The notes below the pieces were generated by a model. It was not told where the DNA came from and searched no databases. It worked only from the letters and a program-made list of their open reading frames with translations. A stretch of 24,872 nucleotides of DNA from a virus (lineage: Duplodnaviria > Heunggongvirae > Uroviricota > Caudoviricetes). Positions within the stretch are counted from its first letter, which is position 1; every line of letters starts with the position of its first letter. The DNA is taken from positions 1 through 24,872 of the IMG/VR virus record IMGVR_UViG_2737471862_000008; one strand, 5' to 3'. The translations under genes were made by a program, and so were the position numbers. Positions 1 through 19,824 of the stretch are shown here, piece by piece.

Positions 1-1062
1 TTCTCCCAAACCAAGGTATGCGAGAAGACCCGCTACATCCTTTCCACTCAAATTGGTAAGCGTATTGTCCAGCGGTTGTTTACCTGCCAGCGCATTAAGC
101 ATTGTCGTGGCAAAGTTCGGATCATTCCCCAGTGCCGCCGCCAGTTCGTTCAGTGTATCCAGTGCAGCAGGTGCAGAACCCACCATTCCTGCAATCGCCG
201 ATTTCACAAAAGCCGTAGTGGCAATCTGTGTATTGTTGACCGACTGCGCCGCCGTGGGGGCTGTTGGCGTTCCGGTGAGTGCCGGACTCGACAACGGTGC
301 TTTTAGTGCCAGCGCATTGTTAATGGTGGTACTGAAATTCGGATCATTGTTAATGGCTGCGGCTATTTCTTTCAGCGTGTCCAGCGTGGCTGGCGCACCA
401 TTAATAAGGGCCGTCAGTGCCGCCTGTACAAACGCAGTGGTCGCAACCTGCGTGGTATTATTCCCCGCCGCTGGCGTTGGCGCTTTGGGGGTTCCGGTAA
501 ATGTCGGGCTGGCTTTTGGCGCGTACTGTGAATGCGGGTCCGGTGCGGCAAGATGTTTTGCCATCTGATCATCCGCGTACACCTTCAGCTCCAGTGCCTT
601 GTCATCCACATACTTGCGGGTTGCCAGCACTACAGCAGGGTCGATTTTCAGGGTGATATTGTCCGTGCTGCTGGTAATCAGCACCATGCGCACGGTCTGA
701 GTGCGCCCGCTACCTTCAGCCAGTTGCGGCTTATAGCTTTCCGGGCAGTTGCCTACGGCAATCAATGCCCCGGACTCATCAAACAGACCCACTTCACGTA
801 TCCACCAACCACCCTCATTTTCAGGGATCACCTGTTCAGCAATAATCTGGCTGCTGTTCTGCGGGTCGATATAAAGCATATTCAGCGCAGCCCGGCGTTT
901 CTCATTTACCAATGCTGTCTGCTTGGCGTCCGGCGTTGGCAATGTTCCGCCGCCATCGCCGACCGCCATATGGGTAATTTTTAAAGGCACACCGAGCGCG
1001 GCGGCGCTGGCAAGTTTCGCCGCGCCAATATCCGTCAGCAGGGTATAAAATTTTGTGCTCAT
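1..1062 (-). CDS. H: Tail fibre protein H, N-terminal 354 codons; 3' end lies beyond the window start
   Basis: Minus-strand frame open from an ATG at 1062 to position 1. Translation begins MSTKFYTLLTDIGAAKLASAAALGVPLKITHMAVGDGGG..., which matches the conserved P2-family gpH N-terminus. Start overlaps the gene I stop (ATGA). Not in the ORF track because no stop falls inside the window. Confidence 0.85.
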   Translation of the reverse strand, partial: MSTKFYTLLTDIGAAKLASAAALGVPLKITHMAVGDGGGTLPTPDAKQTALVNEKRRAALNMLYIDPQNSSQIIAEQVIPENEGGWWIREVGLFDESGALIAVGNCPESYKPQLAEGSGRTQTVRMVLITSSTDNITLKIDPAVVLATRKYVDDKALELKVYADDQMAKHLAAPDPHSQYAPKASPTFTGTPKAPTPAAGNNTTQVATTAFVQAALTALINGAPATLDTLKEIAAAINNDPNFSTTINNALALKAPLSSPALTGTPTAPTAAQSVNNTQIATTAFVKSAIAGMVGSAPAALDTLNELAAALGNDPNFATTMLNALAGKQPLDNTLTNLSGKDVAGLLAYLGLGE

Positions 1063-8669: not shown

Positions 8670-9320
8670 TCAGCGGCTGTCATTGCGCAGTCTGCGCTCC
8701 AGCTGCTGTTTGTCTTTTTTCACGCCACAGCGGGGATCGAGCTGTAACGCATGGTTGAGATGATTAAGGGCGGAAGCCGGATTGCTTTCACTCAGGACAG
8801 CGCCAATCGCTTTATGCAGACGCGCCCGTGACTGGTCCGGCATATCCAGACCGTCTGTCAGCTCCAGCGTCTGCAGCAACAGATCGGCATTAAAGCCGGT
8901 GGCGGCAAGCATTGCGCTCTGCGCGGCGTCTGCCATTTCCTCTGCCAGCACGGTCTGCACGTTGCGGTTACCCAGCGGCATCACCCAGCCATGACGCAGG
9001 GCATGACGCCCGATCTCCAGCGCCCCGGCATAATCTCCGGCATCAATGCGCCACAGCATCACGTACATCAGCACGTCATCCTGTTGAGCGCCTCCGGCAG
9101 CCAGGACACCCTCTGCCCAGGCGGCGTACTTCGGCAGCAGCTCCACCTTGATTTCCGCTTTTTTGACCGTGGACTGAACGCCCTTGAGACGGCGGCGGTC
9201 TTCCGCCAGTTGCAGCAGCATCAGGTCATAGCCCGATGCGTGGCGAACACTGCCGCCCTCGCGGGCGGCCTGTTCAGCCTGAACGCGCAGGCGATGCTGC
9301 CGTGCGGGACTCAGGCTCAT
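8670..9320 (-). CDS. M: Terminase small (endonuclease) subunit M
   Basis: 216-aa ORF directly after N in the P2 order O-N-M-L. Confidence 0.78.
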   Translation of the reverse strand: MSLSPARQHRLRVQAEQAAREGGSVRHASGYDLMLLQLAEDRRRLKGVQSTVKKAEIKVELLPKYAAWAEGVLAAGGAQQDDVLMYVMLWRIDAGDYAGALEIGRHALRHGWVMPLGNRNVQTVLAEEMADAAQSAMLAATGFNADLLLQTLELTDGLDMPDQSRARLHKAIGAVLSESNPASALNHLNHALQLDPRCGVKKDKQQLERRLRNDSR

Positions 9321-11374: not shown

Positions 11375-13141
11375 ATGAACACCACACTGACACCCACAGA
11401 TCTCGATCCCCGTCGGCAGGCCATGCTGCTGTACTTTCAGGGATACCGCGTCGCCCGCATTGCTGAAATGCTGGGCGAGAAAGTTGCAACCGTTCACAGC
11501 TGGAAAAAACGCGACAAGTGGGGTGACTATGGGCCGCTGGATCAGATGCAGCTCACCACCGCCGCACGCTACTGCCAGCTCATTATGAAGGAGCACAAAG
11601 AAGGGAAAGATTTCAAAGAAATTGACCTGCTGGCACGCCAGTCTGAGCGCCACGCGCGGATCGGCAAGTTTAACAATGGCGGCAATGAAGCCGACTTAAA
11701 CCCTAACGTTGCCAACCGCAACAAAGGCCCACGTCGTCAGCCGGAAAAGAATGTTTTCACCGATGAACAGATTGAGAAACTGGAAGAAATCTTCCATTCC
11801 TCCATGTTCAACTACCAGCGCCACTGGTGGGAAGCCGGAAAAACCAACCGCATCCGCAACCTGCTGAAGTCACGCCAGATCGGCGCGACCTTTTACTTTG
11901 CCCGTGAAGCCCTGATTGACGCCCTGCTGACCGGACGTAACCAGATTTTCCTTTCCGCCAGCAAGGCACAGGCCCACGTCTTTAAGCAGTACATCATCGA
12001 CTTCGCCAAAGAAGTGGAAGTGGAGCTGAAAGGCGATCCGATGGTGCTTCCCAACGGGGCCACGCTTTACTTCCTCGGCACCAATGCCCGCACGGCCCAG
12101 AGTTACCACGGCAACCTGTATCTGGATGAATATTTCTGGATACCGAAATTCCAGGAGCTGCGCAAAGTGGCTTCCGGTATGGCTATTCACAAAAAATGGC
12201 GACAAACCTATTTTTCCACGCCATCCAGCCTGACACACAGTGCTTATCCGTTCTGGTCCGGTGCGCTGTTTAACCGTGGGCGCAACAAAGCCGATAAGGT
12301 GGACATCGACCTGTCCCACAACAATCTGGCCCCCGGCTTGCTGTGCGCAGACGGGCAATACCGCCAGATAGTCACCGTGGAAGATGCGGTGCGCGGCGGC
12401 TGTAACCTGTTCGACCTCGACCAGCTACGCATGGAGTACAGCCCGGACGAATATCAGAACCTGCTGATGTGCGAGTTCGTGGACGATCTCGCGTCCGTGT
12501 TCCCGCTCAGCGAACTGCAGGCGTGCATGGTGGACAGTTGGGAAGTCTGGACCGACTTTCATGCACTGGCCCTGCGCCCGTTTGGCTGGCGCGAGGTGTG
12601 GATCGGTTATGACCCGGCAAAAGGTACGCAGAACGGCGACAGCGCCGGATGCGTGGTGGTGGCACCGCCAGCCGTGCCAGGCGGTAAGTTTCGCATTCTT
12701 GAGCGCCACCAGTGGCGCGGGATGGACTTCCGCGCCCAGGCTGATGCAATCAAAAAACTGACCGAGCAGTACAACGTGACCTATATCGGCATCGACTCGA
12801 CAGGCGTCGGTCACGGGGTTTATGAGAACGTGAAAGCGTTCTTTCCTGCCGTCCGGGAGTTTGTCTACAACCCCAACGTTAAAAACGCTCTGGTACTCAA
12901 GGCCTACGACATTATCAGCCACCGCCGTCTGGAGTTTGACGCCGGACACACCGACATAGCGCAGTCATTTATGGCAATCCGTCGCGCCACCACCGCCAGT
13001 GGCAACCGCCCGACCTATGAAGCCAGCCGCAGCGAAGAAGCCAGCCACGCCGATCTGGCCTGGGCAACGATGCACGCACTGTTTAACGAACCGCTGCAGG
13101 GCGAATCCGCCAATACCAGCAATATTGTGGAGATTTTTTGA
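11375..13141 (+). CDS. P: Terminase large (ATPase) subunit P
   Basis: 588 aa (P2 gpP is about 590 aa). Divergent from O; stop overlaps the Q start. Confidence 0.92.
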   Translation: MNTTLTPTDLDPRRQAMLLYFQGYRVARIAEMLGEKVATVHSWKKRDKWGDYGPLDQMQLTTAARYCQLIMKEHKEGKDFKEIDLLARQSERHARIGKFNNGGNEADLNPNVANRNKGPRRQPEKNVFTDEQIEKLEEIFHSSMFNYQRHWWEAGKTNRIRNLLKSRQIGATFYFAREALIDALLTGRNQIFLSASKAQAHVFKQYIIDFAKEVEVELKGDPMVLPNGATLYFLGTNARTAQSYHGNLYLDEYFWIPKFQELRKVASGMAIHKKWRQTYFSTPSSLTHSAYPFWSGALFNRGRNKADKVDIDLSHNNLAPGLLCADGQYRQIVTVEDAVRGGCNLFDLDQLRMEYSPDEYQNLLMCEFVDDLASVFPLSELQACMVDSWEVWTDFHALALRPFGWREVWIGYDPAKGTQNGDSAGCVVVAPPAVPGGKFRILERHQWRGMDFRAQADAIKKLTEQYNVTYIGIDSTGVGHGVYENVKAFFPAVREFVYNPNVKNALVLKAYDIISHRRLEFDAGHTDIAQSFMAIRRATTASGNRPTYEASRSEEASHADLAWATMHALFNEPLQGESANTSNIVEIF

Positions 13142-14178
13142 TGGGAAAGAGTAAGAAAAACCGCGCTGCGGCGACGAACCAGATTCAGCATAAAAGCCAG
13201 ACTTCAGCCGAAGCATTCAGCTTTGGCGATCCCGTTCCTGTTCTGGACCGCCGAGAATTACTGGACTATGTGGAATGCGTACAGATGGACCGTTGGTATG
13301 AGCCGCCCGTCAGCTTTGACGGACTGGCGCGCACCTTCCGCGCTGCCGTGCATCACAGTTCCCCGATTGCAGTAAAGTGCAACATTCTGACCAGTACCTA
13401 TATCCCTCATCCTCTGCTCAGCCAGCAAGCTTTTTCACGTTTTGTGCAGGACTATCTGGTATTTGGTAACGCCTACCTGGAGAAACGCACGAACCGCTTC
13501 GGTGAAGTTATCGCCCTTGAGCCTGCACTGGCAAAATACATCCGACGCGGGTTAGACCTGGATACCTACTGGTTTGTGCAATACAGTATGACAACCCAGC
13601 CGTATCAGTTCACGAAAGGCAGCATTTTTCATCTGATGGAACCGGACATTAACCAGGAGATCTACGGCCTGCCCGGTTATCTTTCTGCCATTCCGTCAGC
13701 TCTGCTCAACGAGTCCGCCACGCTGTTCCGCCGCAAGTATTACATTAACGGCAGTCATGCAGGCTTCATCATGTACATGACCGATGCCGCGCAGAACCAG
13801 GAAGATGTGAACAACCTCCGCAATGCGATGAAAAGCGCCAAAGGTCCGGGTAACTTCCGCAATCTGTTTATGTACTCGCCTAATGGTAAAAAAGACGGAC
13901 TTCAGATTATCCCATTGTCAGAAGTCGCAGCGAAGGATGAATTTCTGAACATCAAGAACGTCAGCCGTGATGACATGATGGCAGCGCATCGTGTGCCACC
14001 ACAAATGATGGGAATAATGCCTAGCAATGTTGGGGGGTTTGGGGATGTGGAGAAGGCTAGTCTTGTATTTGTTCGCAATGAATTGATGCCACTACAGAAG
14101 CGACTACATGAACTAAACGAATGGGTGGGTGCAGAAGTAATACGTTTTGATGACTATGTTTTAGGTGTTCAGGAATAA
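13141..14178 (+). CDS. Q: Portal (capsid vertex) protein Q
   Basis: Track ORF starts at a TTG at 13138; the ATG at 13141 follows GGAG and overlaps the P stop (TGATG). About 345 aa, as P2 gpQ. Confidence 0.9.
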   Translation: MGKSKKNRAAATNQIQHKSQTSAEAFSFGDPVPVLDRRELLDYVECVQMDRWYEPPVSFDGLARTFRAAVHHSSPIAVKCNILTSTYIPHPLLSQQAFSRFVQDYLVFGNAYLEKRTNRFGEVIALEPALAKYIRRGLDLDTYWFVQYSMTTQPYQFTKGSIFHLMEPDINQEIYGLPGYLSAIPSALLNESATLFRRKYYINGSHAGFIMYMTDAAQNQEDVNNLRNAMKSAKGPGNFRNLFMYSPNGKKDGLQIIPLSEVAAKDEFLNIKNVSRDDMMAAHRVPPQMMGIMPSNVGGFGDVEKASLVFVRNELMPLQKRLHELNEWVGAEVIRFDDYVLGVQE

Positions 14179-14181
14179 AAG

Positions 14182-14209
14182 AAAAGGCGCTAATCTCAGC
14201 GCCTTTTAT
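14182..14209. terminator. Bidirectional rho-independent terminator between convergent Q and the cargo operon
   Basis: AAAAGAAAA-GGCGC-TAATCTCA-GCGCC-TTTTAT: a stem-loop flanked by an A-tract and a T-tract, in the 46-bp gap between two convergent stop codons. Confidence 0.55.
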
Positions 14210-14224
14210 CTAACTAACCATATA

Positions 14225-14563
14225 TTAACAAACAGCGTATAAACCATCAAATCCAACGGAATGAACCTTTTTTGATGCTACTTCATTGCTACGGCGTTGG
14301 ATCACTTTTGCAATACTTTTTAAAATTGAAGGGGATGCATTGCGAACCTTAACCTGACTCAAAACTTTGGTTACACCGAATTTCACTACCAAAACACCAA
14401 AGATTTCATCAGAGTATGATTCTGAAATTGAATAAACACCGCTCAGGTCTAAATCTACGGTATACCCTTCTTTAATGAACCCTTCAATCTTGTGTCGTTG
14501 GGGGATAGCCTGATTGCGCGAAGCCAGGTCACCCTCGGGTAACTTGTATGCGATTTTGTTCAT
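14225..14563 (-). CDS. Small STAS-like (anti-sigma-antagonist-like) protein; second gene of a two-gene cargo operon
   Basis: 112 aa. Start overlaps the upstream gene's stop (TAATG) and follows GGAGGAG. The motif VDLDLSGVYSISESYSDEIFGVLVV resembles the STAS/DUF4325-type hLDhsGV..hssSFaDEhfG core. Recalled similarity, not computed. Confidence 0.5.
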   Translation of the reverse strand: MNKIAYKLPEGDLASRNQAIPQRHKIEGFIKEGYTVDLDLSGVYSISESYSDEIFGVLVVKFGVTKVLSQVKVRNASPSILKSIAKVIQRRSNEVASKKVHSVGFDGLYAVC

Positions 14564-15537
14564 TACTCTCCTCCTAACGCCCGCATTATTTCCATAAGCT
14601 GAGGGTCATTTTCTTCGCTATCTTTATCGACTGCCAGTTCATGAATCTTAAAACGGCAAGAAATTGCTACACCCGGCCATTCAGTACGTAATTCAGTATA
14701 GCTCACTTCATCACCTATTGCTTCTAAGCATACATTTCCTGAAGCCAGTTGCAATTCCCCATTATATGTTTTTATCAATTTCATCAAGTGATATAACCCA
14801 AGCCCTTGATGATTATTATCTTTTTCTTTGACCGAAACCCCGTGACCAAACACACTACCCCCAATAAAATCCTGGGGAAGTTGCTGTGCCCAATCATCCT
14901 GCAAATCAGCATGCTTAGATGAATGTCCCTCTTGAATACACCATGCGATCGCATCCTGGTGAGTCTCAATTCCGGGTATACCAGCTCGCCGCAATTCTCG
15001 GAGAAATCCTAACCCACAGTCCGCCAAAGAAAATTCTAAATAGTGCTCTTTTCTTTGTGTGTGGGGTACAGCCGAACGTTGTGCAAAAGAAAAACCCGTT
15101 GATTTTCCATGCGACCAAACGTTATCGTGAAGCTCACCTATAACATGTGTTAGATCTGTAAGTCCCTTGGGATAATCTCTCGGATCACGATCAGGGAATG
15201 TTAACTGCCTTACACAACTGTTAATACTACCAGTGGCAACGTCAACAGCTTCAACATTGGTTAATGCTGTAACCAAACTGTAATTTCTCCCAACATTTAC
15301 ACGTTCCTGTTGATACTGATCCTCGCCCCATAAAGCACCATGTAAATTGATAGCCCGCATATAGTCAGGGCATGACAAAACGCAGTTATCTTCGGTAATT
15401 TTGTGATGATTCACGTAAGCTGCTAAGACAGTGATAAAACCAGGATGCCAATGGTTGTTTGGCAATTGCAATTCATTAGTTTCCTTTTGATGAAACGCAG
15501 CGGTATGCACAATAGCGTCTTTTAATCCTAACCCCAT
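14563..15537 (-). CDS. GHKL-type (histidine-kinase/anti-sigma-kinase-like) ATPase with an N-terminal domain of unknown function
   Basis: 324 aa. Bergerat-fold motifs are visible: N-box GELHDNVWSHG, G1 box LADCGLGF, G2 box HQGLGLYHL. The first ~130 aa have no recognisable motif. Lower GC than the phage backbone. Confidence 0.6.
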   Translation of the reverse strand: MGLGLKDAIVHTAAFHQKETNELQLPNNHWHPGFITVLAAYVNHHKITEDNCVLSCPDYMRAINLHGALWGEDQYQQERVNVGRNYSLVTALTNVEAVDVATGSINSCVRQLTFPDRDPRDYPKGLTDLTHVIGELHDNVWSHGKSTGFSFAQRSAVPHTQRKEHYLEFSLADCGLGFLRELRRAGIPGIETHQDAIAWCIQEGHSSKHADLQDDWAQQLPQDFIGGSVFGHGVSVKEKDNNHQGLGLYHLMKLIKTYNGELQLASGNVCLEAIGDEVSYTELRTEWPGVAISCRFKIHELAVDKDSEENDPQLMEIMRALGGE

Positions 15538-15566
15538 GAACCGAACCTTTTTTATGCATTTTTCTT

Positions 15567-15595
15567 ATCATATAACTTAGGACTGATCAGCGCAA
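15567..15595 (-). promoter_or_regulatory. Candidate sigma70 promoter of the GHKL/STAS operon
   Basis: On the minus strand: TTGCGC, 17 nt, TATGAT, about 30 nt upstream of the ATG at 15537. Prediction by eye only. Confidence 0.3.
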
Positions 15596-15649
15596 AGATC
15601 CCGACACTCTTGAATCATACTAAATTAAGGCCTATACCACACAGCGCGC

Positions 15650-15672
15650 GCTCGTATCCCCGCCACGCCTGC
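15650..15672. other. cos-like sequence (candidate cohesive-end site of the phage genome)
   Basis: The minus-strand reading of 15658..15669 is GGCGTGGCGGGG. That equals the first 12 nt of the 19-nt cohesive end I recall for phage 186 (GGCGTGGCGGGGAAAGCAT); P2 has GGCGAGGCGGGG. The match decays after 12 nt. It sits in a GC-rich island between two AT-rich cargo modules. Confidence 0.4.
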
Positions 15673-15711
15673 CCGCTTTATGTAGCGGTTTTCATGCGCC
15701 TGCATGACATA

Positions 15712-15738
15712 AGCAAAATCCCGCCACTCCTGGCGGGC
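15712..15738 (-). terminator. Putative rho-independent terminator of the membrane-protein cassette
   Basis: Hairpin CCCGCCA-CTCC-TGGCGGG, followed on the minus strand by ATTTTGCTT, about 90 nt downstream of the 15830 stop. Confidence 0.4.
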
Positions 15739-15829
15739 CTCAGCTAAAACGATCCTCAAACGATCATGCGGATTCATGCGGCATAGACATGCACAATCTC
15801 CAAAGCGGGCATCGAGACTTTTTGGAAAC

Positions 15830-16441
15830 CTACGTAACCACAGTTAATGTGTGCATCCTGTCTCGAATTGCATCACACGTCTCATCAAAAAGCTTGGTGA
15901 TGGTTGTATGGTTCAACTCCGCCTCTTTCCAATAATTTTGCCCGTCAAATTCTGGATCGCTATGCTTAAACGATATTGACTCTGAAAGGCATTCCTTCCG
16001 GAAACGGTCCAAGATTATATAAACCTCTGGTGAGATGAACGGTTTGTTAGATTCAACACTTGTAACAAAAGTGTTAAATGCATCAGAAAAAACTTTCAAC
16101 CTTCTAAATTTTCTCTCTTCAAATGGTTCGTTGGGGTCAACATGATCCAGCGCAGGCCTCAGCTTAAGCACGCTTTCTCTGGTTTCAAACATCGAATTCC
16201 AAATGAGACTATATGCTGATAACTCCTTATCAAAATACGCTTTCGTTACATAAACAGAATTGTCTAACTTAGCCTTTATTCTTTCATTAGTTGCACTCAG
16301 TTGTGATTGAAATTCAGCAATATCTTTGTTTAGCCGCGACTTATATCTTTCTAAATAAACTTTCCCGATCCAAACAAATATGCCAGATGCAACAAAAGAC
16401 ACCCCACCCAACGAAGCCAGAACTTTAAAGACTAAATCCAT
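15830..16441 (-). CDS. Membrane-anchored protein of unknown function (single N-terminal TM helix plus ~175-aa soluble domain); single-gene cargo cassette
   Basis: 203 aa. N-terminal hydrophobic helix VLASLGGVSFVASGIFVWIG, then a charged coiled-coil-like region. RBS GGTGGGGG precedes the ATG. AT-rich. Lies where P2-family phages carry variable genes (tin/old position). Confidence 0.55.
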   Translation of the reverse strand: MDLVFKVLASLGGVSFVASGIFVWIGKVYLERYKSRLNKDIAEFQSQLSATNERIKAKLDNSVYVTKAYFDKELSAYSLIWNSMFETRESVLKLRPALDHVDPNEPFEERKFRRLKVFSDAFNTFVTSVESNKPFISPEVYIILDRFRKECLSESISFKHSDPEFDGQNYWKEAELNHTTITKLFDETCDAIRDRMHTLTVVT

Positions 16442-16470
16442 TGCGCCCCCACCTGCAAAAATAGTATTCC

Positions 16471-16497
16471 ATTATAAGCTAATACATTTTTAATCAA
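16471..16497 (-). promoter_or_regulatory. Candidate sigma70 promoter of the membrane-protein cassette
   Basis: On the minus strand: TTGATT, 15 nt, TATAAT, about 30 nt upstream of the ATG at 16441. Spacer is short; by-eye prediction. Confidence 0.3.
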
Positions 16498-16705
16498 ACA
16501 GGGGATAATTCGCGTCAACCTCATCACTTCTCTGCTCTACCCTAGTGACTTCCATCAAAAACCCCAGGCCGTCATATAGCGAAACGGGGAATTCCAGCTC
16601 AAGCCAGAAGCAGTCTTCATAGATGCGGCCCAACCAAAAACCTCCGCCACACTCCTTTGGGCGTTGAAAGAAAACCCAGTCGCCAAGGGTTAAACGTTCC
16701 AGCAC
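16490..16705 (-). CDS. Hypothetical small protein (possibly a gene remnant)
   Basis: 71-aa ORF with no recognisable motif and an uncertain start. Its 3' end overlaps the predicted promoter of the next cassette. Confidence 0.25.
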   Translation of the reverse strand: MLERLTLGDWVFFQRPKECGGGFWLGRIYEDCFWLELEFPVSLYDGLGFLMEVTRVEQRSDEVDANYPLFD

Positions 16706-16823
16706 CTAGCCCCGATAAATAATCTGGTGATTACTGTCTTTTTTACCCATGGCTAACGCCTCGCTACTCTCGTTGTTCAACCTTGCTGACGTCAGATTCA
16801 AGTTCTTACATCAGGAACGTTCC

Positions 16824-17057
16824 TTAGTGCAGCCAGCTGTCGTCTTCCCAAACCTGTTGCATAATTTCCATCACCCGCTTTTTGTCTTCATCAAGCTTTA
16901 AGCCACTCAGCTCAACGCCGTTTGCCGACCCTTTACGGATGCGGATAGCGGTCTTGGGATAGATGGGTTGCAGGTTGCGGTAAAGCTCGGACTCCAGAGC
17001 GTCCAGGGTAGACTGGCTAATCTTCTGCTCTTTATCGATCATTATTTCAATGCGCAT
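16824..17057 (-). CDS. DinI-family protein (DinI / Tum C-terminal-domain-like)
   Basis: Track ORF trimmed to MRIEIMIDKEQ...: 77 aa. Alignable by eye with E. coli DinI (MRIEVTIAK...IDAL.GEL.RR.Q..FP......VR........V.G..K.DK.R...ILQETWE..D.W). Confidence 0.75.
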   Translation of the reverse strand: MRIEIMIDKEQKISQSTLDALESELYRNLQPIYPKTAIRIRKGSANGVELSGLKLDEDKKRVMEIMQQVWEDDSWLH

Positions 17058-17067
17058 AAAAGTCACC

Positions 17068-17256
17068 TCAGCTGATGACATCCATTGAGCGGTTGTATTC
17101 GTGGCTTCTGATTTTTGCCATGAGTTCATCAGTCAATTCAGAAACCCACTGCAGGGCCAGCCCCTTCTCTTCATCACTACACTCACTAGCCGCTACAAGC
17201 TTAAGAAAAAAATCAATGCGCTGGAGCTTCAAAGACTCCAAAAAATAGTCCTGCAT
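17068..17256 (-). CDS. Small protein upstream of the DinI-like ORF; candidate N-terminal part of a Tum-like antirepressor
   Basis: Track ORF trimmed to MQDYFLESLKLQ... (62 aa), which follows a strong RBS AGGAGGAAAG. In a different frame from the DinI-like ORF. Downstream of a LexA box. Confidence 0.5.
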   Translation of the reverse strand: MQDYFLESLKLQRIDFFLKLVAASECSDEEKGLALQWVSELTDELMAKIRSHEYNRSMDVIS

Positions 17257-17297
17257 CTTTCCTCCTATGACACCGCAAACAATACTGTACAGATAAC

Positions 17298-17340
17298 CAC
17301 TGTTTATATTTACAGTATATGATAATCTTACTGATGTAAA
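17298..17340 (-). promoter_or_regulatory. SOS promoter: LexA box overlapping the -10 of a sigma70 promoter
   Basis: Minus strand reads TTTACA (-35), 17 nt, TACTGT (-10). The LexA box TACTGTAAATATAAACAGTG (CTGT-N8-ACAG; consensus TACTGTATATATATACAGTA) covers the -10, about 45 nt upstream of the 17256 ATG. Confidence 0.6.
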
Positions 17341-17409
17341 ACGTTTTTTTACGTTCATCAGCCTGATATGCCTGGTATTATTAAGAGCACGAATTGTTAA
17401 CCCGCGTAA

Positions 17410-19824
17410 TTAATACAGGTTCCGCCACTTATCATCTTCCTGCAAACGCTGGTTCCGATAGAAGACACGCAGGCCTGCTCCTGACGGAATACTGCCGCCG
17501 CGAAGGAGTAAATCGACCTCTTTCTCGCTGCCATCAAATCCTCTGGACTTCAGTTCATAGACGAGCTGCTGTCGTTGATGGTCTGTAATTCGCTGTTTGT
17601 AGTCTCTACGCCGTTTCGGTTTCACCAGGCGTAACCTTGCAGCCAGTTCCCGGCGCTCTTTTTTGTTCATACTGTGCAGGTAATCGTGCAACTCCTTGTC
17701 ATCCATGTGGGTAATGTCCGTTCTGGTATCCCCATCAGCTGATTTGTCTTTCCCTTGTTGGTTCAAATTTTCAGCAAGGGGACAGTTATTGCCACGAGTC
17801 CAAGGGGCGCAAGCGCCCTGGTCGGCTGCCGCCTCCTGAACGTCAACGGCCTTACGAACCATTTTCCACTTCACGGCATGAGTGCAGATCTTGCCCTCTG
17901 CAATAGGTGACCAGATGCCATAAATACGAATGCCGTGATCGCCATAGGCGGTCGGCTCTTCGTTGATTTCATAAGCAGTTCTGATGAGGTGATATTTGCG
18001 GGGAACCAGTACGCCACCCTGCTTCATGATGTAGGTGGCAAAACAACCAGCATCAGCAGCAGCCAGAATGGCATCAAGGCGCGGGTTATCCAGTACCGGC
18101 GCACCTGCTTTTTTGTCCCCCTGTTGCCTTGCCGCCTGACCAGCCAGCAATCGCAGTTCACGGTAAGCCTGACGCCCCGGAATGCCAAAGAAGCGGAATT
18201 GCTGAACACGATGCAGAGACGCCCAGGCATTAACGTATTCAGCATTATCACGCAGGGATTTCCCCGTTTCCTTGCTGATCTCGCCAGCCAGACCACGCCC
18301 GTCAATGTTCTTACTGATGTATTTCGCGATGTAGCTTGTTGGCGTACCTTTGCGCGGGTTAATCAACTCAGACTTAAAGCGCGGCCCAGTGTTATTGCCC
18401 AGCTCCTCGCGGTCTTCACGGATGGCAAACTTACGCAGTAATGCAGTGATGGTGCGGCGGTCTTTTTTGCGCATAAAACACAACAGGTGCCAGTGAACTG
18501 TACCGTCATGATGCGGCTCAGCCACCCGCACGCCATACCACCGCAATCCGGCTTTGTGCATCGCCTTACGAAATGCAGCAAACATGCCGACCAGATAATC
18601 ACTGCTTTGTCTTACCGTCGCATTTGTCCAGGTTGGGTTGGGCCTGCCGTTATTTAGCGTGGAATGGAAACGTGACGGACAGGTGATGGTGTAGAAAACG
18701 GCGCAGTCACCGCGCATTTCCGCGATAAGCTCCAGACCTTTAACACAGGCCATCATCTCATTGCGGCGATGCGCTGGGTTGCTGCTGCTGGCGTTTACCA
18801 CATCCTCCATGTCCAGCGTGTCGCCGTCTTCGTTCACCAGTTCATGAGAACGGAAAAACTCCAGCGACTTACGGCGCTGCTCACGTTTATGCATCACGGC
18901 TTCATAGCTGACATAAGGAGATGCTTTTTTGCTGACAAGGCAGACTGCACGCAACTGCTCTTCCCGCCATTCGCAACGCATCTTCCATAATTTCCGATAC
19001 CACCAGTCGGCGCACAACATACGCGCCAGCGAACCCGGAATGAGTTCATAGGGCACGGGTTTACGGCGGTTTCTTTTCCGACGGAGTTGCTCAAACGCAG
19101 GCGGGATGACATCCAGACGCAGGGTTTCCGCTGCCACCCTTTCCCATGTATTGCGGATTTCTTCTGGCTTAACGTCATCGGTGGCATACAAATCGCCACA
19201 AGCGGCATCAAGGCACATACTCATATGCGCAGCTACCAGGGTGGACAGGCGTTTCACCTGATCCTGACTCATTTCAGGCAGGATCAGCAGGCCGTCCAGC
19301 CCTTCATGGCTTGCCATAAAGCGAAAAGATGCAGATAGCTGACTGTCGCGTACATGCTCCAGTCGTTCCAGACATGGCTTAATCGTCTCACGTAAATAGC
19401 GGGAATAAGCCTTTGGCCTGCCCAGGCTGCTGAAGTATTCAATACGTTGCATCAGCGGCTTGCTGATATGGGAAGGCTGGGCGTTGACGTCCGCCAGAAT
19501 GACCATATCCGGATTAAAACGCTGCTGCTCATGCGCCAGCTTTGCCCGACTAATGAGCTTATCCTGTTCCATTTCGCGCTGGACAGGATCACGGGATTCA
19601 TTAAAGAAATAACGCTCCCAGACCTGATCACTCAGCGCCTCACGGCGCAGCTGTTCCTGCTCGTTATCGGCAGCGTACAGAGTGATCAGGTTTGAAAGCG
19701 TAGAAACCGGCGCAACTTCCACCGGGTCCAGATAAGGGTTAATGGCCTTTTTCGGGCTGTTCCATGAGAACGATGCGGCAGCTTCGTTAAAGCCGCAGCA
19801 GTTGTTCATATCGGCATGACTCAT
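17410..19824 (-). CDS. A: Replication initiation protein A (rolling-circle nicking endonuclease)
   Basis: 804-aa ORF in the P2/186 position of gene A. Start ATG overlaps the Dam stop (ATGA). Confidence 0.88.

Follow-up and report, generated by a model that had tools for sequence, protein, structure and literature searches.

The cohesive ends of P2, 186 and P4 are 19-mers that have been sequenced biochemically. A conserved 55-bp cos region of P2 and P4 was described by Ziermann and Calendar (1990), as quoted in two later papers (PMC3931495, PMC9594776), and the same papers report that longer flanks gave better cosmid transduction. Rousset et al. (2022, PMC9122126) counted 1,650 arrangements among 18,150 loci of the cos-proximal interval between gpA and gpQ, which they described as a hotspot of defence genes, and the hotspot and its rapid swapping were confirmed by Moura de Sousa et al. 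(2026, PMC13586616). Table S1 of Rousset et al. gives an arrangement of HATPase_c with DUF4325 among the P4 hotspot systems, and their Table S5 contains DUF4325-containing arrangements, one of which lists the same STAS protein accession as is found here (PMC9122126).

Here we analyzed this region in a window (the whole stretch of DNA under study, 24,872 nucleotides), which is a P2-family prophage lying reversed relative to the P2 map. Our preferred reading, with a probability of roughly 0.88, is that a 12-mer in this region is the 5′ part of a 19-nt cohesive end within the 151-bp packaging site of a Fels-2/Cartapus-type P2-family prophage, and that the two cargo slots on its sides are exchanged via the cos core. 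The features are collected in Table 1.

Table 1. Features of the window around the predicted cos site, with positions in the window.
Feature	Position	Strand	Evidence or remark
Small terminase gene M (216 aa)	8670..9320	-	phrog_74 terminase small subunit, E = 3.4e-88
Large terminase gene P (588 aa)	11375..13141	+	Pfam Terminase_6N, Terminase_6C, Terminase_5 (gpP-like)
Portal gene Q, conserved left anchor of the left cargo slot	13138..14178	+	Pfam Phage_portal
Hairpin terminator between convergent Q and left cargo operon	14182..14207	.	terminator scan, 11-pair stem
Left gene 2, 112-aa STAS-like DUF4325 protein	14225..14563	-	Pfam PF14213, E = 9.3e-10; overlaps gene 1 stop
Left gene 1, 324-aa protein, C-terminal half resembling GHKL-type ATPases	14563..15537	-	motifs, fold matches
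CGCGCGC, inside the predicted virion left end, last conserved bases before left cargo	15644..15650	-	column identity 0.96-1.0
Predicted 19-nt cohesive-end sequence GGCGTGGCGGGGATACGAG	15651..15669	-	opens with the 12-mer
Conserved right arm of cos, 125 nt	15670..15794	-	sharp outer edge at 15794
GCATG motifs in arm	15792..15788, 15779..15775, 15769..15765, 15697..15693	-	
Inverted ATGCA in arm	15705..15701	-	
G+C hairpin CCCGCCAGGAGTGGCGGG, then ATTTTG	15720..15737	-	terminator scan
Right gene 1, 203-aa protein, one N-terminal transmembrane helix	15830..16441	-	phrog_26391 full-length match
Right gene 2, 71-aa protein, without transmembrane helix	16490..16705	-	phrog_2100 match
DinI-family gene, conserved right anchor of the right slot	16824..17129	-	Pfam DinI, E = 3.8e-24, residues 38-100
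Replication gene A (gpA)	17410..19824	-	Pfam Phage_GPA, E = 6.9e-128

The large (gpP) and small (gpM) terminase subunits are both encoded by the element that carries the site, genes P, Q and M are full length, as are the head ORFs next to them, and the product of gene P is the enzyme expected to cut at cos. The hairpin terminator after Q lies where tQ and tW are annotated in the P2 and 186 records. Sub-threshold Rfam matches to the Salmonella sRNA STnc40 were seen on both strands of window 14139-14254 (32 and 30 bits, gathering score 45); they overlie this terminator and are probably just its stem. At the other anchor, the DinI ORF (101 aa) and its upstream neighbour (17068-17358, 96 aa) overlap, with relatives annotating 77 aa and 62 aa and with Pfam and PHROG matches starting at residues 38 and 35. 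The true starts of both ORFs are probably internal, for DinI because relatives annotate 234 nt.

The 12-mer GGCGTGGCGGGG (15669..15658, minus strand) occurs once in the window, and the exact 12-mer was found in 0 of 100 dinucleotide-preserving shuffles. With one mismatch allowed the expectation is 0.11, so that the 12-mer by itself is only moderately persuasive. The preliminary description had taken it for the first 12 nt of the 186 cohesive end, and it is: NC_001317 annotates 1..19 as 'cos; cohesive end', ggcgtggcggggaaagcat. The annotated 19-mer of the P2 record is ggcgaggcggggaaagcac. The window 19-mer is G+C-rich with the GGCG(A/T)GGCGGGG start of P2-family cos sites, and it matches 186 cos over 13 consecutive nt and at 15 of 19 positions overall, the mismatches falling at four of the last six. 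Its 3′ end is ATACGAG, against AAAGCAT in 186 and AAAGCAC in P2 and P4 (positions 14-19 differ). It lies between the 3′ end of Q and the gpA end of the genome, in the same order as in 186, P2, Fels-2, SopEPhi, SEN8 and Cartapus.

An alignment with the P2, 186 and P4 cos regions had been proposed beforehand as a check, and it is ungapped with matches on both sides of the nick, which means that the homology extends beyond the 12-mer. The minus-strand junction of the window reads GCGCATGAAAACCGCTACATAAAGCGGGCA up to the nick, then GGCGTGGCGGGGATACGAG and CGCGCGC; the 186 junction, formed by its right end and left end, reads CTGCATTAAAACCGACCCATAAAGTGGGCA, then GGCGTGGCGGGGAAAGCAT and TGCGCGC, and the P2 and P4 junctions align to the window equally well. 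All aligned sequences, with the core shared by P2 and P4, have in common GCAT.AAAACCG....(A/G).AAAG.GGGC(A/G) before the nick, the 19-mer, and (T/C)GCGCGC after it.

Relatives were taken as 80 IMG/VR loci with a portal protein 92-97% identical to that of the window; five of them end within about 2.1 kb past Q and the remaining 75 were scored for the 19-mer. The expectation that the 19-mer of related phages would align at 15669..15651 held in all 75, always between Q and gpA, with 72 exact copies and three in which the last base is T. The T-ending form GGCGTGGCGGGGATACGAT is carried by three IMG/VR loci (L050 10190-10209, L066 9955-9974, L086 9955-9974), and this terminal G to T change is the sole variation seen inside the cohesive-end sequence among the relatives. 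Salmonella phage SEN8 has the very same 19-mer at 1..19, annotated as its 'putative cos site', and the SEN8 record ends at the homologue of window 15670; the 19-mer is also contained in the 'putative cos site, homologous to the cos of P2' of the E. coli LF82 prophage Cartapus (NC_070909). The SEN8 annotation was made by homology (PMC5427200), as was that of Cartapus; the literature search returned no experimental end mapping of the ATACGAG variant, and the search with the 12-mer returned homology-based annotations only. Taken together, the alignments support the identification of 15669..15651 as a putative P2-family cos site.

The site lies in a sharply bounded block. In a column profile of 73 distinct sequences the island from 15794 down to 15644 (151 bp) is nearly identical throughout and identity is at random level on both sides, being about 0.2-0.5 from 15643 downward. 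Many E. coli megablast matches begin at query 1744-1746, corresponding to window 15643-15645, the same edge at which conservation drops. The block is strongly asymmetric: from the nick it extends 125 nt toward gpA, and beyond the 19-mer it has just 7 nt (CGCGCGC) toward Q, where P4 has CGCGCGC and P2 and 186 have TGCGCGC. In the right arm, AAAACCGCTACATAAAGCGGGCA adjoins the nick, and the GCAT offsets from the nick (-123/-110/-100/-28) are the same in P2, 186, P4, SEN8 and the window. The 125-nt arm is probably the terminase recognition region, as the analogous cosB is in lambda. The stem of the arm hairpin is kept across 76 loci, in which the loops vary and a few changes are two-sided; 186 and P4 have a hairpin of unlike sequence at the equivalent place. 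In the window this hairpin looks like an intrinsic terminator for transcription coming from the right cargo.

The description of the site as a GC-rich island in AT-rich cargo agrees with the composition, which is 57.6% G+C in the block 15644..15794 and 81% in the 26-nt core, against 41.8% in the left cargo genes, 36.8% in the left intergenic region and 38.7% in the 203-aa gene, with gpA and P at 53-56%. An Rfam search in E-value mode over 14100..17500 gave no family in 15540..15830 and only the sub-threshold STnc40 matches on the Q terminator. Small hypothetical ORFs or over-extended starts are annotated across the cos block in public records (L005 1153-1296, L014 1900-2094, L095 5291-7135), and they are likely to be spurious calls over a cis-acting site.

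According to the 186 record, the cut in the top strand falls at the 5′ end of the 19-mer and that in the bottom strand at the 3′ end. The top strand corresponds to the minus strand of the window, so by this rule staggered nicks are predicted between 15670 and 15669 on the minus strand and between 15650 and 15651 on the plus strand, leaving 5′ overhangs; the ungapped alignment is the sole basis for placing the bottom-strand nick, since the window departs from the sequenced P2 and 186 ends at positions 14-19. The gpP/gpM terminase would recognise the GCAT-repeat arm of 125 nt on the gpA side and then nick both strands in this staggered way; we infer both the binding to the arm and the cleavage from these comparisons. 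With 15669 as its first base and coordinates falling from there, the linear virion chromosome would have at the left end a 113 bp AT-rich spacer, the 324-aa gene, the 112-aa gene, the terminator (14207..14182) and the convergent portal gene, and at the right end the 71-aa gene at 16705..16490 and the 203-aa gene at 16441..15830, followed by the cos arm of 125 nt. The GHKL/STAS operon had been placed at the extreme left end, between cos and the portal gene, and this is right if the cut is at the homologous position. On the same condition the 'membrane-protein cassette' does belong at the extreme right end; its name fits less well, one of its two proteins having a transmembrane helix. With cos placed here, the virion map of this prophage is fixed, and each physical end of the packaged DNA would carry one of its two accessory modules.

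The left cargo is a pair of genes. Homologues of the 112-aa protein are named 'STAS-like domain-containing protein' in RefSeq. The 324-aa protein gave no Pfam match and no sequence match in the PDB, matches to RAG2 being dismissed as chance (E > 1). GHKL ATPases are characterised by a Bergerat fold with an N-box (E...N), a G1 box (DxGxG) and a G2 box. The family of the 324-aa protein, widespread in Gammaproteobacteria, has 295 homologues and a typical length of about 320 aa, and in it N139, D173xGxG177 and G245LGL248 are invariant and E135 is nearly so. Its AlphaFold2 model has pLDDT 87, and in a Foldseek search against the PDB all top matches are GHKL ATPases (ParE, WalK, TRAP1, GyrB, an anti-sigma factor), though the matches are weak, with a best E of 5.8e-3 and TM of about 0.25 over the whole chain. 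From the motifs and the modelled fold it is reasonable to regard the protein as GHKL-like. It matches phrog_3364, and homologues in which the two proteins are fused occur in phrog_5816. The pair looks like a partner-switching type of module and a candidate defence module that recurs in P2 and P4 hotspots. PADLOC gave no convincing defence-system match for the four cargo proteins; the STAS-like protein had a domain-level DrmA match only (E = 2.3e-6) and a marginal PDC-M65A match (E = 0.009). The promoter scan gave no strong minus-strand sigma-70 promoter for the left operon in 15538..15643. A weak TTGCGC-N17-TATGAT, unscored, can be read by eye upstream of the operon. As a by-product of the survey, this uncharacterised GHKL-like/STAS-like gene pair is a candidate for an anti-phage assay.

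In the right cargo, the 203-aa protein reaches a Kyte-Doolittle 19-residue maximum of 2.01 at residues 7-25 and the 71-aa protein a hydropathy maximum of 0.96. The 203-aa protein has homologues in Cartapus (gp47) and UMNF18, and in UMNF18 the 71-aa gene accompanies it. RefSeq labels the 203-aa protein 'valyl-tRNA synthetase' in many E. coli genomes (L014 2147-2758). This label is almost certainly a misannotation and seems to have no other basis than a coiled-coil match to Val_tRNA-synt_C that stays below threshold (E = 0.0091; 16.7 bits, cutoff 25.9).

The distribution of cargo around the block was analyzed in 73 loci with Q at least 92% identical (IMG/VR and the window). The content between gpA and gpQ is highly variable among these close relatives, as in a hotspot: the left cassettes fall into 49 clusters and the right ones into 23, 66 combinations of which occur, and the same left cluster is seen with as many as four right states. 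The gap from Q to cos ranges from 164 nt (empty, as in P2 and 186) to 3.5 kb and that from cos to dinI goes from 80 nt, the slot being empty in 17 loci, up to 4.4 kb, and each slot is found empty independently. Where pairs of loci share the left cargo, the right cargo is also shared in 22%, against a background of 9%, and differs in 78%. Linkage is weak. Both cassettes are in common in 8 pairs, where 3.2 were expected (P = 0.014), and assortment falls short of complete freedom. Among complete E. coli genomes, 25 have the left cargo and 52 the right cargo; both together were found in 0 of 5,426, and none of these genomes covers at least 80% of 13900..17700.

Two strains show where the halves of the window join. 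PSS-15 has the same left operon with another right gene, and UMNF18 has the same right genes with another left gene. Compared with PSS-15, the window has 5 mismatches in 14120..15641 and one at 15642, is identical up to 15685, and then has 11 mismatches in 15686..15739; compared with UMNF18 it has 0 mismatches in 15643..15984. This pattern places a crossover within 15643..15685, that is the 19-mer and its immediate flanks, and the window is a recombinant with the crossover inside the invariant cos core. The haplotype of the right arm differs by a mean Hamming distance of 1.06 between pairs sharing only the right cargo, and by 16.25 with respect to left cargo against a background of 15.92, where it is unlinked; the 125-nt arm travels with the right cargo. 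The claim that two independent cargo sites flank cos is supported by the 66 combinations in 73 loci, by the separate occurrence of the two cargos and by the crossover at the cos core.

Against PSS-15, the 3′ part of Q (13600-14119) carries 27 mismatches in about 520 nt and the left cargo (14120-15641) 5 in about 1,520 nt, which suggests another crossover close to the end of Q, marking the limit of the left cassette that was exchanged. Neither the stretch from the Q terminator to cos nor that from cos to dinI contains an essential gene, so each interval works as a separate cargo slot. The left slot would be exchanged by homologous recombination with Q and the cos core as arms, and the right slot likewise with the cos core and dinI/gpA. 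Homologous exchange confined to the sole perfectly identical tract is the simplest reading, the mechanism being one that we infer from the mosaic pattern, and it is also possible that terminase-cut ends stimulate the exchange. Joining of two genomes through their cohesive ends was considered as a source of the mosaics and set aside: a cos-to-cos dimer repackages to the parental genomes, and so joining alone makes no recombinant. Homologous exchange at the core is simpler.

The same slots carry other cargo elsewhere. Accessory genes stand on both sides of the block in Fels-2, SopEPhi, SEN8, Cartapus and phage 500465-1, and E. coli prophages have a retron with PtuAB, TIR, KAP-NTPase and HsdR-like genes in these positions. 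Some E. coli prophages have known defence systems specifically in the Q-to-cos slot. In strain M37H this slot holds a retron RT, an AAA ATPase and PtuB (L096 3501-6753), and in strain PT109 there is a KAP-type P-loop NTPase on the Q side and a protein with an HsdR-N domain on the other side of cos (L095 5291-9885). E. coli matches to the cos block only (H152, H153) were considered as P4-like satellites and rejected; they are degraded P2-like prophages with other cargo. A wider and more tentative idea, which we regard as possible yet rather doubtful, is that the published hotspot as a whole consists of two independently assorting slots, with the cos core as the common exchange joint and the 125-nt arm inherited with the right cargo. 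If true, it would fit cassette exchange that starts from terminase-cut cos ends or is focused by them; the other possibility is homologous recombination of the ordinary kind, restricted by the shortness of the identical tracts.

Other explanations of the locus have to be weighed against the preferred reading. The whole gpA-gpQ interval may move as one cassette, so that the two sites are an artefact of sampling, and here the literature treating it as one locus (PMC9122126, PMC13586616), the weak positive linkage (P = 0.014) and a draft genome in Table S5 of Rousset et al., which pairs the same STAS protein with a probable homologue of the 203-aa protein, all count in its favour. We nevertheless consider it very unlikely given the number of combinations, the left cluster with up to four right states, the 78% of left-sharing pairs that differ on the right, the independent emptying of the slots and the explicit crossover in the cos core. 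It is unlikely, too, that the prophage is defective and the site a relic of cos, no longer used, with the placement of cargo unrelated to virion ends here. No more than 24.9 kb of the element can be seen, and the cos block does persist in some degraded P2-like prophages, such as PT109 and M37H with their truncated terminase genes, but in the window P, Q and M and the adjoining head ORFs are intact in length, the match to UMNF18 through 15643..15984 is perfect and the 19-mer is the exact consensus.

That the 151-bp island owes its conservation to something else (for instance a small ORF, a transcription terminator, a regulatory RNA), with the true cut elsewhere in 14179..17409, appears extremely improbable to us. 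Hypothetical small ORFs are annotated across the block (MLG42 XAF37142.1; UMNF18 RS34015) and a terminator-like hairpin lies inside it; against this, Rfam has no family in 15540..15830, the island aligns base for base with P2, 186 and P4 junctions that are annotated as cohesive ends, with the GCAT offsets fixed, and nothing else is conserved between Q and gpA across the relatives. The packaging-site reading, with two slots joined at the cos core, has the support of homology and comparative genomics.

In comparison with known cos sites, those of 186, P2 and P4 lie, like that of the window, downstream of the portal gene W/Q and on the far side from gpA. The 186 cos is identical in its first 13 nt, and all three share AAAACCG...AAAG.GGGC upstream of the nick, (T/C)GCGCGC after the 19-mer and the same GCAT offsets. 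The Q-cos interval of P2 and 186 is empty (about 170 nt) and their gpA-side cargo is old and tin in P2 and tum and orf97 in 186, whereas both sides are occupied in the window. SEN8 and Cartapus (Felsduovirus/Elveevirus) have an identical 19-mer and flanking core and accessory genes on both sides of their predicted cos, and Cartapus also has the 203-aa gene on the right. Their left cargo differs, being a hypothetical protein and an HNH endonuclease in SEN8 and a DUF4145 protein in Cartapus, in place of the GHKL-like/DUF4325 pair of the window. The lambda cos, laid out as cosQ-cosN-cosB, offers an analogy in that a nicking site there also has a much longer one-sided recognition arm with repeated short motifs; it has no sequence relationship to the window and its overhangs are 12 nt, against 19 nt predicted here.

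With the published hotspot the window shares the locus and the extreme turnover of cassettes among near-identical phages. As this cos-adjacent gpA-gpQ hotspot is already published, the finding is an ordinary one and not a new kind of element. The published surveys score gpA-gpQ as one arrangement (PMC9122126, PMC13586616), while here it is divided into two slots by the invariant cos core; this explicit two-slot structure, with the core as the joint, is a modest refinement of the known layout, and it gives hotspot surveys an operational rule, to split gpA-gpQ at the invariant 26-nt cos core.
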